A stretch of 64,000 nucleotides of DNA, from the NCBI GenBank assembly GCA_963777715.1, contig CAVZRN010000020.1:8395-72394 (forward strand), read 5' to 3'. The stretch is from an uncultured Gammaproteobacteria bacterium (GTDB lineage: Bacteria > Pseudomonadota > Gammaproteobacteria > JAURND01). The notes under the pieces are model-generated. The model saw only the letters and a program-made list of their open reading frames with translations, was not told the DNA's origin and did not search any database. Below are positions 8,388-61,945 of this stretch, one piece after another. Within the stretch, counting starts at the first letter, position 1; every line of letters begins with the position of its first letter. The translations under genes were made by a program, and so were the position numbers.

Positions 8388-8488
8388 AACTCCTATTTTT
8401 GTTTCTAGCTAACCATCAGCTACCATCTTGTCCCTGTCCATTACCCATAAGTCTGTAACTACTCGTTAAACCTGTCTTTTGGCTGGAA

Positions 8489-8567
8489 GCCCCTGGGAGC
8501 GCGGGCAGCTTGCCCGCATGTGTGCCAATGGCTTAAATGCGGGCAAGCTGCCCGCGCTCCCAGGGGC
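8489..8567. repeat. palindromic repeat, family A
   Basis: gcccctgggagcgcgggcagcttgcccgcatg...atgcgggcaagctgcccgcgctcccaggggc. The same element occurs at 13422, 20380, 28318 and 48721. It is nested inside a further 20-bp inverted repeat (8435..8454 / 8619..8638). Confidence 0.85.
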
Positions 8568-8795
8568 TTTGCACCACTCATTACCCTGCTGTTCAACCCA
8601 ATGCCAACGCTACTTGAGAGACTTGTGGGTAATGGACAGCGTCTTACCCCCTCCTCATACCACGATAAATTAGCCCTAGGGGTTCCCGTTTGGGTAGCTC
8701 TGTTCTTGGCTTGGCTTCTCGATTTTGTTTTTCTTAGGGTAGGATGGTGTTAGGGCTTTGGTACAAAATGTCCCTTTTTAGTCCCTGTAAGGGCT

Positions 8796-8824
8796 AAAAA
8801 AAGAGGGTTTTCGGAAAAACCCTC
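8796..8824 (-). terminator. rho-independent terminator of the tRNA operon
   Basis: On the minus strand, gagggtttttccgaaaaccctc (9-bp stem) is followed by T7, 30 nt downstream of the tRNA-Glu 3' end. Confidence 0.65.
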
Positions 8825-8853
8825 GAAAAATAAAGCACTTACACGCGAAAAAA

Positions 8854-8929
8854 TGGCGTCCCCAAGGGGATTCGAACCCCTGTTACCGCCGTGAAAGGGC
8901 GATGTCCTAGGCCTCTAGACGATGGGGAC
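8854..8929 (-). tRNA. tRNA-Glu (anticodon UUC)
   Basis: The reverse complement GTCCCCATCGTCTAGAGGCCTAGGACATCGCCCTTTCACGGCGGTAACAGGGGTTCGAATCCCCTTGGGGACGCCA folds as a cloverleaf. Anticodon loop CTTTCAC, encoded CCA. Confidence 0.9.
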
Positions 8930-8975
8930 ATGAGATTTATGTTGAGGCTATTCTGATGACCGATACAAAAACTAC

Positions 8976-9051
8976 TGGTGGAGCTAGGCGGGATCGAACC
9001 GCCGACCTCTTGCATGCCATGCAAGCGCTCTCCCAGCTGAGCTATAGCCCC
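8976..9051 (-). tRNA. tRNA-Ala (anticodon GGC)
   Basis: The reverse complement GGGGCTATAGCTCAGCTGGGAGAGCGCTTGCATGGCATGCAAGAGGTCGGCGGTTCGATCCCGCCTAGCTCCACCA is near-identical to enterobacterial tRNA-Ala(GGC). G3:U70 is present. Confidence 0.9.
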
Positions 9052-9070
9052 GAATGGCGCAGGAGGGGGG

Positions 9071-9099
9071 ATTTTAGGGAAGGGGGTGGGTTGTGTCAA
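9071..9099 (-). promoter_or_regulatory. sigma70-type promoter of the tRNA-Ala/tRNA-Glu operon
   Basis: On the minus strand: TTGACA, 17 nt, TAAAAT, then a GC-rich discriminator (cccccctcctgcgcc) just before the tRNA-Ala 5' end. Confidence 0.6.
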
Positions 9100-59200: not shown

Positions 59201-59358
59201 AAAGCGACTTTGTCGCTTGGAAAACCACCCGCTATGTACTATAAATAAAGGAGAATAGATGTAGGGGATTGAGGTATTTTGCAACAATGTCGACTAAAAC
59301 TAGATAAAAATACCTTAATATATATTAATCATCGGGTTAAATTCTAAAGGATGGCGTG

Positions 59359-59907
59359 ATGTCTAATGTGGCTTCTGCTGTTAGTGCATTGAATCGAGGT
59401 GGTTTAATTGCATATCCTACTGAGGGAGTGTATGGGTTGGGATGCGATCCACTTAATGAGTTGACGGTGTTAGAACTGTTGGTATTGAAAAAACGCACGG
59501 TAAATAAAGGATTGATTTTAATAGCCTCTGATGTGGAACAACTGCTTCCCTATATTGTGCCAGTTCCACCCGAATGTATGCAGCGGGTATTGGCCACTTG
59601 GCCTGGACCAGTAACGTGGATATTCCCGGCATCGGAAGCAGTGCCCGCATGGATTCGTGGCGATTATTCTACCGTGGCGGTGCGTGTTACAGCCCATCCG
59701 ATTGCTAAAGGTTTGTGTGAGAAATTTGGTCGTCCCGTAGTGTCTACCAGCGCTAATTTAACTGGAGACGCGCCGGCGTTGAGTGTTACTGATGTAAAGA
59801 AACATTTTCCATTAGGGCTTGATGTGATCGTGCCAGGAGACGTTATGCAGCGTGGTAAGGTTTCGGAGATACGAGATGTGATGACGGGGAAAGTTGTTCG
59901 GGTGTGA
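59359..59907 (+). CDS. tsaC: L-threonylcarbamoyladenylate synthase (YrdC/TsaC type)
   Basis: GGLIAYPTEGVYGLGCDP...VVSTSANLTG. Confidence 0.85.
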   Translation: MSNVASAVSALNRGGLIAYPTEGVYGLGCDPLNELTVLELLVLKKRTVNKGLILIASDVEQLLPYIVPVPPECMQRVLATWPGPVTWIFPASEAVPAWIRGDYSTVAVRVTAHPIAKGLCEKFGRPVVSTSANLTGDAPALSVTDVKKHFPLGLDVIVPGDVMQRGKVSEIRDVMTGKVVRV

Positions 59908-59909
59908 GG

Positions 59910-60033
59910 GAAACGGCCATATTTTGCCGATTTTGGCGGGAAAAAGTCTCTCAAAATGCTCACATATCAACCCATATATGCTGCGCTTTTTCGAGACTTT
60001 TTCGCACCAAACTCGACTAAAATCTGACCGTTT
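59910..60033. repeat. family H palindromic element
   Basis: Near-identical to 58051..58176. It starts 3 nt after the tsaC stop. Confidence 0.8.
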
Positions 60034-60081
60034 ATAACTAGTCAGCGTAATTAAATATCTACAAGTAAAACCAAGTACTTC

Positions 60082-61308
60082 ATGTATAAACATCTCAAAT
60101 CCTATACCTTCCTGTTTATTCTCATTGCTTCTATCCTATTGGGTGGCGTTGCTGGCTATGTATTGGGACCCAGCGCAACTATCTTAAAACCACTCGGCGA
60201 TATTTTCCTAAACCTAATGTTTACCGTAGTCATCCCATTGATATTCTTTAGCGTTTCTTCAGCTGTCGCTAATATGGGTGATCTAAAACGCGTAGGCAAG
60301 GTCATCTCAACTACGCTGGGTGTATTTTTATTTACCGGCCTGGTTGCAGCGTTGTTTATGATTATCGTAGTGATGTTATTTCCGCCAGCGCAAGGTGTGG
60401 TAGTGACGTTATCAACGGCCGCAAAAACAACTGCCGCCACTAGTGTGGGTGACCAACTCGCTAACATTTTCACTGTGGCTGATTTTTTCAAACTGTTTTC
60501 ACGTGACAATATACTGGCGCTCATTTTTTTCGCAGTGTTGGTAGGATTGGCTACTTCAGCCTGTGGTGAAAAAGCCAAACCGATTGCAGTATTATTGCAA
60601 GCAGCGACGGAAGTTTCTATGAAGTTAGTGTCGTTCGTTATGTATTATGCGCCCATTGGATTTTTCGCCTATTTCGCAGTATTAGTAGCAGAACTCGGAC
60701 CAAGATTACTCGAAACTTATGCGCGCGCCACGTTGATCTATTATCCGGCATCAATCATTTATTTTATTGTGGCATTTACTGGCTATGCTTATTTGGCAGG
60801 GAAAAAACCGGCGATTCGGGCATTTTGGAAAAAGGTATCCTTGCCATTTATGACGTCACTGGCTACCTGCAGTAGCGCCGCCAGTATTCCGGTTAATTTA
60901 CAAGCCACGTGCGACATGGGCGTGCCAGCGCAAATTGCTGAAACCGTCGTCCCCTTGGGCGCTATCTTGCATAAGGATGGTTCAGTGATGGGTGGGGTAG
61001 TGAAAATTGCATTTTTATTTGGACTATTTCATCTGCCTTTTTCTGGGTTATGGGTATTGGCAACGGCAGTATTAGTTGCGTTATTAGTTGGCACAGTGAT
61101 CGGTGCGATTCCCAGTGGCGGCATGGTAGCAGAAATATTAATTCTATCGCTGTACGGATTTCCACCGCAGGCGCTGATTATCATTGCCGCTATTACCATC
61201 TTGATTGATCCACCAGCAACGGTATTGAATGTGAATGGGGATAGTGTGGCGAGTATGTTGGTAGCCAGATTAACAGAAGGTAGGCGGTGGTTGGGTGTTG
61301 TTGAATAA
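60082..61308 (+). CDS. dicarboxylate/amino acid:cation symporter (DAACS family)
   Basis: 408 aa polytopic protein. [20 protein letters not shown]..., SSAASIP and GDSVA-type motifs. Confidence 0.8.
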
Positions 61309-61623
61309 CACATATTCCGTAACTGGCTCCCCGCCAATTAAATGTTGTTGAATAATTTGTTCCAATACCTCCGGCGTGCACGAGTGATACCAAACGCCAT
61401 CGGGATAAACCACGGCAATCGGTCCATTGCTACAAATGCGCAGACAATTCGCCTTGGTGCGCAATACCGTAGTTAATTTCAATTCCTGCAAACGCCGCTT
61501 TAAATAATCCCATGCTTCTAATCCTGCTTCCAGGCTGCAACATTTTGGCGTAGTCTGATCGCAACATAAAAAAATATGCCGCTGTATATTGGGTAGGTTC
61601 AATGCGATTATTTTTTGTTGCAT
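61270..61623 (-). CDS. thioredoxin-like [2Fe-2S] ferredoxin-domain protein
   Basis: [14 protein letters not shown]...[22 protein letters not shown]. The 3' end overlaps the convergent transporter gene. Confidence 0.65.
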
Positions 61624-61629
61624 AATTTA

Positions 61630-61945
61630 GCCATGGCCTTGTTTCCTTCTCCCCTCGTGGGAGAAGGTGGCCGCACCTATATTTTAGCTTAAAACAGTAT
61701 ATGAATGATAAAGTATTTTAGCTAAAAAACCTAATTGAAACTGTGCGGACGGATGAGGGGTAGATGAGTTTGGCAGAAAACCATGACCCACCCCTCATCC
61801 GTCCGCACAGATTTATCAAAATTTATTAGCTGGTATAGTACATTGCCTAAATCAAATTTACAGCCAGCATCTGGGTGCGGCCACCTTCTCCCACGAGGGG
61901 AGAAGGAACAATGCCACTGCTAAATGAGGGAGAAAGGAAACAAGG
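61630..61945. repeat. family C composite palindromic element
   Basis: ttccttctcccctcgtgggagaaggtggccgcac, gtgcggacggatgaggggt, acccctcatccgtccgcac, gtgcggccaccttctcccacgaggggagaagg. Confidence 0.85.

Follow-up and report, generated by a model that had tools for sequence, protein, structure and literature searches.

Small palindromic, non-autonomous elements such as the Correia elements of Neisseria, ERIC and the Rickettsia palindromic elements (RPEs) saturate intergenic space and can be co-transcribed. RPEs can also insert in frame within genes, and a TA duplication is typical of Correia elements. The present analysis concerns the hairpin-forming repeats of a 64-kb stretch of DNA (C20:8395-72394, referred to as the window) from the metagenome-assembled genome (MAG) of an uncultured gammaproteobacterium. 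The MAG comprises 2.05 Mb on 25 contigs, is 67% complete and has a G+C content of ~44%. Its contigs are labelled C5, C20, C21 etc., the MAG itself G000 and relatives' genomes G001 to G007; the set of relatives comprised 30 genomes, including two of the same genus. Several kinds of selfish element, all of them non-autonomous and hairpin-forming, have very probably colonised the intergenic DNA of the window; they were amplified within the lineage and are often nested. As with RPEs, an in-frame gene insertion is found (a unit of family E in hemC), whereas sequences and termini are unrelated to those of Correia elements, ERIC or RPEs, and a Correia-type TA duplication is seen for one family (G) only.

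Repetitive extragenic palindromes (REPs) with a GTAG or CGTC tag are known from eight phyla, and several REP families per genome have been reported, e.g. for Coxiella burnetii (PMC3733652). [quoted passage not shown] QMITE2 also resembles them, as far as its description rather than its sequence was compared, as a MITE with a GTAG REP that lies mostly 3' of open reading frames (ORFs) and overlaps ORF ends; relatives of QMITE2 occur in Bradyrhizobium and other alphaproteobacteria (PMC5896051). The MAG differs in its many more families and deeper nesting. BoxC/PIT/'TM' intrastrand triplex motifs form a further group, which is highly conserved, widespread and intergenic, with no linked transposase (PMC4666352). 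The kinds of element found here, namely REPs and their doublets (REPINs), BoxC-like modules and MITEs with terminal inverted repeats (TIRs), are thus known already; their density and nesting are unusual, and one family, B, is poorly understood. According to a recent census, whole MITEs are genus-specific (PMC11602168), in contrast to the wide sharing of short cores described below.

Abundance and density of the repeats

A reading of the window made beforehand without database searches (the sequence-only reading) had described eight families, A to H, of nested palindromic repeats. All eight were recovered at their positions by repeat finding, direct reading and regular expressions (Table 1), and the elements are non-coding, palindromic, nested and dispersed. 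A whole-MAG search placed each family on 8-17 contigs, with 62 loci for A, 102 for B, 41 for C, 69 for D, 42 for E, 31 for F, 12 for G and 15 for H. Low copy number or confinement to the window, which would have spoken against mobile repeats, is excluded by these tens to ~100 loci per family. Three inverted repeats also exist as described, one at 27331-27440, one at 39716-39901 (arms of 38 nt, 100% complementary) and one at 8434/8619; the first two, taken for singletons, are instead dispersed families with 9 loci (27331, termed I) and ~25 mostly partial loci (39716, termed J) genome-wide. The supposed F fragments near 39790 and 44690 are mutually similar, yet the match to F spans 13 nt only.

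At least two modules come in addition to the eight families: a hairpin, K, nested in F (33765-33835; 34 loci genome-wide) and a BoxC-like module around E. Altogether, at least eleven families of small hairpin-forming repeats occupy housekeeping intergenic gaps. By BLAST, 8.6 kb of the 64-kb window recurs elsewhere in the genome, single segments having up to 137 matches. Representatives of A, B, C, D, E, G, H and the 27331 element fold as single-stranded DNA with z-scores of -4.7 to -15.7 relative to shuffles. With crude ORF-based gene calls as the basis of all density figures, 22 of the 38 intergenic gaps ≥30 nt in the window carry a repeat, and repeats make up 39% of its intergenic bases versus 11% genome-wide. 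The eleven families amount to 2.0% of the genome, for which the window is ~3.5-fold enriched.

Repeats in a MAG of 25 contigs and 67% completeness might be artefacts of assembly or binning, i.e. chimeric joins, collapsed repeats or contigs of several organisms. Contigs fall into two G+C classes (~0.44 and ~0.46-0.47), several terminate in E units, and some ends are duplicated at 98-99% identity (C7:1-10019 vs C12:10016-1; C12:38575-45262 vs C9:145686-138999), which suggests that two strains were co-assembled. An artefact is nevertheless highly improbable: copies lie within long contigs between intact syntenic housekeeping genes, they differ by point and compensatory changes, all families are present on contigs of both G+C classes, and related elements occur in G007, a closed single contig. 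Several contig ends (C12:63-199, C13:4-27, C7:9821-9957) are located in or beside E units or insertion sequence (IS) copies; the repeats are therefore what breaks the assembly.

Structural classes of the repeats

The description of the families as MITE/REP-like is supported, and it can be refined to four or more classes that differ in mechanism. Classical REP doublets (REPINs) with a GTAG tag are represented by D and E. A D unit reads GTAG-GGGCAGGC-CTTGT-GCCTGCCC and an E unit GTAG-GGGCGGTTCGTGAACCGCCC. Exact patterns with the 5' GTAG tag occur 85 times for D and 47 times for E in the genome, versus 0 and 0 for reversed control patterns. Both families mostly form inverted doublets with the tags outward. 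The D stem exists in several compensated variants (CAACC/GGTTG, TAGCC/GGCTA, CGACC/GGTCG, TAGGC/GCCTA); across 28 distinct units, 94.2% of the cells of the 8-bp stem are paired and five of eight pairs are changed on both sides, and neither the pairing nor the covariation score was reached by any of 500 shuffles. The GTAG REPs and REPINs of E. coli (REP/BIME) and Pseudomonas (PMC3733652) are alike in the tag, the G+C-rich stem of 6-8 bp with a short loop, the head-to-head doublets 20-60 nt apart and the compensatory stem variants. They likewise prefer co-directional and convergent gaps, are occasionally intragenic and occur as several families in one genome. They are accompanied by a single-copy gene for a REP-associated tyrosine transposase (RAYT) flanked by the same REPs, to which the RAYT-like ORF described below, with REPs on one side, corresponds in part. 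The MAG differs in that its doublets very often lie within the tips of other palindromes.

The window itself contains no transposase or RAYT gene, as had been noted, and the whole genome yields one match to Y1_Tnp. This 183-aa ORF (C21:98171-98719) carries an HUH motif (NHLH) and the tyrosine motif YYEH and scores 78.5 bits on NCBIfam REP_Tyr_transpos ('REP-associated tyrosine transposase'). It is located in a type I restriction-modification operon (region C21:97860-101430), where hsdS and hsdR are its neighbours, a position that differs from that of described RAYT genes, and is preceded by four D units (C21:97951-98153), the last of which ends 18 nt before the RAYT start. Both D and E are absent from the 30 relatives, including the two same-genus genomes, with the exception of one D unit in G005. 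Such species-specific spread is as expected for a REPIN population tied to a resident RAYT. The only RAYT of the genome, a Y1/HUH transposase, would cut out D and E in the form of single-stranded hairpins and paste them elsewhere; the link to D is suggested by adjacency, and the enzyme is presumed to be active.

One E-like unit has altered a protein. Relative to the Vibrio and E. coli enzymes, HemC carries a 14-aa in-frame insert, RKRAVHERAVHEPP, which coincides exactly with the unit at 45414-45456; hemC (44832-45794) otherwise aligns end to end with solved porphobilinogen deaminases.

Family A likewise consists mainly of inverted pairs. Its unit is CTGG-GAGC-GCGGGCA-GCT-TGCCCGC, and two units face each other across a 19-21-nt loop between outer arms AATGGC..AAAG. 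Three compensated stem variants exist (GCGGGCA/TGCCCGC, GCGGACG/CGTCCGC and GCGGGCG/CGCCCGC). The loop is found in both orientations between identically oriented flanks, which points to inversion through the palindrome. A is also present in G001, G006 and G007, the last being a 1.7-Mb genome from another genus of the same family (JASGJS010000001.1) with ~100 exact A cores. G007 also encodes a RAYT of 208 aa (28% identical to the C21 protein, 102.6 bits) that has A-like units on both sides (L187 positions 1227, 2138, 2285). A thus probably works like a REP. It would depend on a second RAYT of the type flanked by A-like units in the sister genus, whose gene may lie in the missing third of the assembly or may have been lost.

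Copies of the A core in G007 either stand alone or follow each other head to tail in arrays that repeat every 93-100 nt (e.g. 1244428-1244747 and 1350199-1350419). Arrays of short, partly palindromic, high-copy units could point to a dedicated system, for instance CRISPR-like arrays, attC sites of integrons, or signals for recombination or uptake. This is the least probable of the alternatives, to a degree that makes it close to negligible: the inter-unit stretches in G007 are themselves repeated and hence no unique spacers, the units in the MAG are inverted doublets scattered singly between housekeeping genes, direct reading of the sequence shows no attC R/L box layout, and the sole recombinase gene in the window encodes a phage-type integrase (7167-8387) beside two tRNA genes.

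C is a palindrome of ~290 bp composed of CCTTCTCCCCTTGTGGGAGAAGG, GGCCGCAC, an AT-rich linker of ~65 nt, GTGCGGAC-GGATGAGGGGT, a loop and the mirror image. Triplex motifs are defined by a Y block, a complementary R block and a second R block that follow each other with short loops (PMC4666352). C and the module often found around E (CCTTCCCCCGCAAGCGGGGGAAGG ... GGGTAGGGAGGGGG), which is of the same type, have corresponding pyrimidine, complementary purine and further G-rich blocks (CCTTCTCCC / GGGAGAAGG / GGATGAGGGG). Judged from sequence, both are BoxC/PIT-type modules, i.e. a hairpin with a G-rich third block. C differs from the described motifs (PMC4666352) in that it pairs two modules as a ~290-bp palindrome and in the linker between hairpin and third block; the third block lies ~75 nt from the hairpin here and adjacent to it in alphaproteobacterial copies.

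Families F to K are TIR MITEs of the ordinary kind. C, F, G, H, I and J are non-coding and 100-310 nt long, below the 500-bp limit for MITEs, with TIRs of 14-52 nt. The 16-nt TIRs of G are mostly TA-flanked, as in IS630/mariner-type elements, and relatives of G occur in G001-G003, three other genomes of the same taxonomic family. H has TIRs of ~14 nt, and the termini of F and K are alike (GTCATCCC). Six multi-copy IS were found in the MAG, namely IS21 (at least 8 copies), two IS66 types, IS4 (at least 6 copies), IS607/TnpB and ISL3; unlike in the case of the QMITEs (PMC5896051), no IS1111-type element targeting REPs was seen.

B is the least explained family. It forms a foldback of 110-170 bp, in which arms of 2-4 tandem GACGCARA octamers enclose an A-rich/T-rich centre. 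Degenerate AAAAGATT octamers flank the arms on the outside and supply TAA in all three frames on both strands, so that a B insertion near a gene end costs little. Arm polarity is nearly uniform in the genome (49 pairs inward, 1 outward), and B is essentially absent from the 30 relatives. Foldback (FB) transposons, known from Drosophila and other eukaryotes, share the inverted arms of short tandem repeats in variable number and the AT-rich centre; B is bacterial, only ~150 bp long and has no coding version that could be found, and the analogy is structural, with no homology implied. Assignment to the CGTC-tagged REPs was considered and rejected. Those have a terminal CGTC, an 8-9-bp stem starting with A/T pairs, a 4-5-nt loop and a CCA tail. 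In B, GCGTC lies inside the octamers, but the stem is at least 25 bp long, the centre is long and AT-rich, and there is no CCA tail. A literature search for the core sequences, including the B arm strings, found nothing relevant in the searchable library. B occupies short spacers just downstream of genes and would be moved by some mobilising factor.

The cores of A, B and C are widely shared. The 26-nt A core has exact matches in dozens of contigs of one Chloroflexaceae MAG and also occurs exactly in other Chloroflexota, Acidobacteriota, Blastocatellia, Planctomycetota, Binatia, Verrucomicrobiota, Opitutaceae, Syntrophobacteraceae, Acidimicrobiia and a Neisseria MAG, among others. Flanks usually differ; the Blastocatellia core lies in a similar AATGGC-armed doublet. 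No RAYT was found near these cores in four Chloroflexaceae/Blastocatellia genomes, where no core is ≤1.5 kb from a Y1_Tnp match, and one Chloroflexaceae genome with the A core has no Y1_Tnp match at all. For B, more than 117 stretches contain a GACGCARA x 2.75 pattern, and they represent many phyla (Acidobacteriota, Chloroflexota, Bacteroidota, Planctomycetota, Verrucomicrobiota, Gemmatimonadota, Actinomycetota, Cyanobacteria, Chlamydiota and others). The partner arm lies downstream (5'-GACGCARA...TYTGCGTC-3') in 60 of 117 loci and upstream in 9. That the polarity is the same in many phyla and in the MAG suggests arms that carry sequence information with a direction, and speaks against arbitrary palindromes. 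The 23-nt C hairpin is found exactly in Mesorhizobium, Bradyrhizobium, Brevundimonas, Caulobacter, Phenylobacterium, Roseiflexus, a Planctomycetales MAG and other gammaproteobacteria, and these distant copies have the same layout of hairpin and GGATGAGGGG without the long linker. The C core was found in 74 and the B core in 10 viral or prophage contigs, which is not decisive with regard to phages as vectors; the A core was not found in viral contigs. It is conceivable, though doubtful, that the short hairpin cores represent cross-phylum superfamilies which either move between bacteria that are only distantly related or are kept constant by cognate proteins of wide distribution. If this is true, foldbacks of the B type with tandem-octamer arms would add a third, hitherto undescribed class to the GTAG and CGTC REPs among bacterial hairpin repeats, with a mobilising or binding factor of some kind. 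Wide core sharing is not new as a kind; what stands out for A and B is how exact and how broad it is. Such exact sharing of the A, B and C cores across phyla is relevant to the question of whether REP-like elements are inherited vertically as partners of domesticated transposases or exchanged horizontally as modules.

Nesting, gene context and rival explanations

The repeated nesting reported by the sequence-only reading is real. Much of it reflects composites (B-A, A-D) that were amplified as units and not repeated independent insertion. Ten of 64 A cores lie inside B spans, and at least seven B-A copies have an identical right junction (GCCATTGAATTAAATC-TTTTATGTTT-TCTCTGCGTC) and the same off-centre position of A, including those at 28261-28515 and 48622-48885, which are in opposite orientations. 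Similarly, 13 of 32 D doublets replace the loop and the right hairpin of A in one fixed arrangement, four of them within IS66 copies; other D doublets are located in K hairpin tips. The half copy of A seen at 23343 is a lone A core that belongs to such an A-D composite. The theme that recurs is the insertion of a REP doublet into the tip of a different hairpin. Composites of A in B, of D in A or K and of E in the BoxC-like module very probably arose by insertion into an existing hairpin tip and then spread as units.

A 1977-bp IS66-family element is present in four nearly identical copies (C5:6622-8598 and three more; C5, C6, C7), and each of them contains the A-D composite in the non-coding 3' end. 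An active IS therefore carries REP-type elements along with it. Apart from this composite, the only contact with an IS end is one IS4 copy inserted beside a K-like end.

The position of the elements relative to genes also fits a different explanation, by which they are host-selected functional RNA or DNA signals, such as bidirectional terminators, mRNA 3'-end stabilisers or intercistronic processing sites, that were spread by selection. B, D, E and K avoid divergent (promoter) gaps, which hold 5 of 93 intergenic B loci compared to 22% of all gaps, although such avoidance is equally expected from purifying selection on selfish insertions. In co-directional gaps the geometry of B is regular: the first arm begins 7-30 nt past the upstream stop codon in 30 of 37 cases, and the next gene starts ~27-46 nt beyond the other arm. 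Stop codons in every frame from the outer octamers and compensatory change in the stems are further properties expected of functional signals. REPs elsewhere are located downstream of genes and thought to act in transcripts (PMC3733652), and the QMITEs yield sRNAs in Coxiella (PMC5896051). A scan for consensus promoters and terminators, by contrast, showed no excess (22 terminator sites vs 22.8 expected). Among curated RNA families (Rfam), none exceeded the threshold in the window except for two tRNAs (8857-9051), the remainder being sub-threshold matches to generic miRNA hairpins. Elements are also found within an IS and within hemC, and B, D and E are, as stated, essentially missing from the relatives.

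The gap between pyk and mlaE is the sole orthologous gap that was compared. Genes of the same-genus genomes have a nucleotide identity of only 70-76%, which permits comparison of gap content but not alignment. The gap in G001 (L205, G001:C10, reverse-complement 2240-2395) contains neither B nor A; another element is present instead, in the form of two tandem ~96-nt K-related hairpins ending CGGGATGACGG. B and A are therefore not conserved regulatory RNAs, and orthologous conservation as structured RNA, which the sequence-only reading had named as evidence against mobility, was not seen. Taken together, an origin as host-selected signals is unlikely, and selfish amplification is preferred; a secondary, co-opted role in transcripts, especially of B, may exist. 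A small conserved membrane ORF follows pyk in both G001 and the MAG.

Several results weigh against the view that the repeats are selfish mobile elements. No mobilisation event was seen, no high-identity pair of empty and filled sites was found, and the near-duplicate contig pairs (C7/C12 and C12/C9, 98-99%) show no large indels. A clear target-site duplication was found for G only, as TA flanks and only in part, and none at A, B or H. The CTGG tag of A is outside the described degeneracy of GTAG and sets this family apart from GTAG REPs (PMC3733652). No A-type RAYT is present in the 67%-complete assembly, where tblastn with the G007 RAYT found only the C21 gene. The C21 RAYT scores 1.5 bits below the curated cut-off of 80, and, unlike in described REP systems, REPs lie on one side of it only: D units are directly upstream, and the next D cluster (C21:101066-101429) follows 2.3 kb downstream, after hsdR. 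Resident IS were examined as a source of the elements, as had been proposed, and rejected, since the ends of the six multi-copy IS in this 67%-complete assembly match no repeat family. An autonomous form of B was also rejected: arms 1-2.2 kb apart enclose only housekeeping genes (mutL, eno, lpxC, nusB etc.) and belong to neighbouring separate elements. The regular placement of B after stop codons would equally fit a co-opted transcript role. The data show the families with their copy numbers and structures, the covariation of stems, the adjacency to the RAYT gene, the junctions within composites and the restriction to the species; the mobilising enzymes and any present-day activity are inferred.

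Selfish amplification would make this small genome a compact natural experiment on the coexistence of different selfish hairpin elements, with REP doublets, BoxC-like modules, TIR MITEs and an octamer-armed foldback occupying the same gaps. The elements alter proteins, as seen from the insert in HemC and from changed ORF ends; the prmB-like ORF, for example, runs into B as far as 26151. They break assemblies and cause spurious ORF extensions and should be masked when this lineage is annotated. Several ORF calls elsewhere begin within B arms, with artefactual 'SLRLCV'-type N-termini.

Host and further features of the window

The genes of the window are ordinary housekeeping genes, including those for aspartate aminotransferase and pyruvate kinase as well as mlaE, prmB, parC, uvrD, hemC/X/Y, prfA, recQ, lptD and surA. 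A homologue of AnkH/LegA3-type Dot/Icm effectors is also encoded. This gene content is in keeping with an intracellular bacterium of the Legionellales/Coxiellales-like kind. Among named genomes, even the closest PrfA sequences reach only 65-67% identity.

Table 1 Repeat elements of the window. Positions refer to the window
Element	Position	Components	Context
A doublet	8434..8639	cores 8492-8517 and 8539-8564 within 21-nt outer inverted repeat (8434-8454/8619-8639)	between integrase gene and two tRNA genes
A doublet, solo copy	13412..13510	cores 13422-13447 and 13470-13495	
Other A cores		20373/20420, 28332/28378, 48736/48783; lone core 23343	
A-D composite	23341..23447	left A arm 23343-23368, D GTAG REP doublet 23372-23433, right A arm remnant	
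D GTAG REP doublet	25057..25162	doublet 25058-25119, third unit 25137-25161	
D GTAG REP doublet	51133..51218	units 51134-51217	
E GTAG REP doublet	44700..44845	doublet 44755-44814; hairpin ...GCAAGCGGGGGAAGG and G-rich block	nested in BoxC-like module
E-like REP unit	45414..45456	unit 45416-45439; minus strand	in hemC
C cluster	11144..11844	one full element and its right half as a tandem array, 3 x 158 nt (11361-11834); hairpins and inner palindromes 11216-11793	
BoxC-like variant module, then full C element	16975..17351	module 16990-17045, C element 17071-17351; hairpins and inner palindromes 17079-17341	
C element	34657..35000	outer hairpin CCTTCTCCCCTTGTGGGAGAAGG, ~65-nt AT-rich linker, inner palindrome GTGCGGACGGATGAGGGGT...ACCCCTCATCCGTCCGCAC, mirror half; hairpins and inner palindromes 34720-34983	
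C element	61615..61943	hairpins and inner palindromes 61645-61906	
Two tandem B foldbacks	15760..16150	arms 15788-15810/15936-15958 and 15983-16005/16113-16135	directly after stop codon at 15759
B-A composite	20284..20560	left arm 20313-20335, degenerate right arm near 20495-20515, A doublet 20361-20461	
B element	26077..26270	arms 26100-26122/26225-26255 (right: four octamers)	
B-A composite, opposite orientation	28261..28515	arms 28279-28293/28470-28492, A cores 28332 and 28378	just upstream of AnkH/LegA3-like gene
B-A composite	48622..48885	arms 48647-48669/48847-48861, A cores 48736 and 48783	directly after uvrD stop at 48621
F MITE	23995..24161	TIR TTGTCATCCCCGCCGCTC	
F MITE with nested K hairpin	33702..33960	K hairpin 33765-33835	
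G MITE	1669..1810	TIR GACTTCTTTCAAAACC, mostly TA-flanked	
G MITE	30604..30745		
H MITE	58048..58182	element 58051-58175	between lptD and surA
H MITE	59907..60040	element 59910-60033	
Palindromic element I	27331..27440	40-nt arms	
Element J	39716..39901	perfect 38-nt GTAG-started inverted repeats 110 nt apart	

Two very large ORFs of the window, 35118-39314 (1398 aa) and 41898-44657 (919 aa), have no NCBIfam match and share paralogous segments (37316-37456 with 43073-43213; 37875-37981 with 43653-43759). Three internal direct repeats of ~141 nt are present in the ORF at 27479-28258 (27477-27523, 27618-27664, 27753-27799). Outside the window, C5:30594-46626 consists of 16 kb of tandem repeats with a period of ~318 nt and an identity of 77-83%, probably a giant gene of repetitive structure and of the surface or adhesin type. 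The phage-type tyrosine integrase gene is followed by an A element and then by two minus-strand tRNA genes (8857-8929 and 8979-9051).

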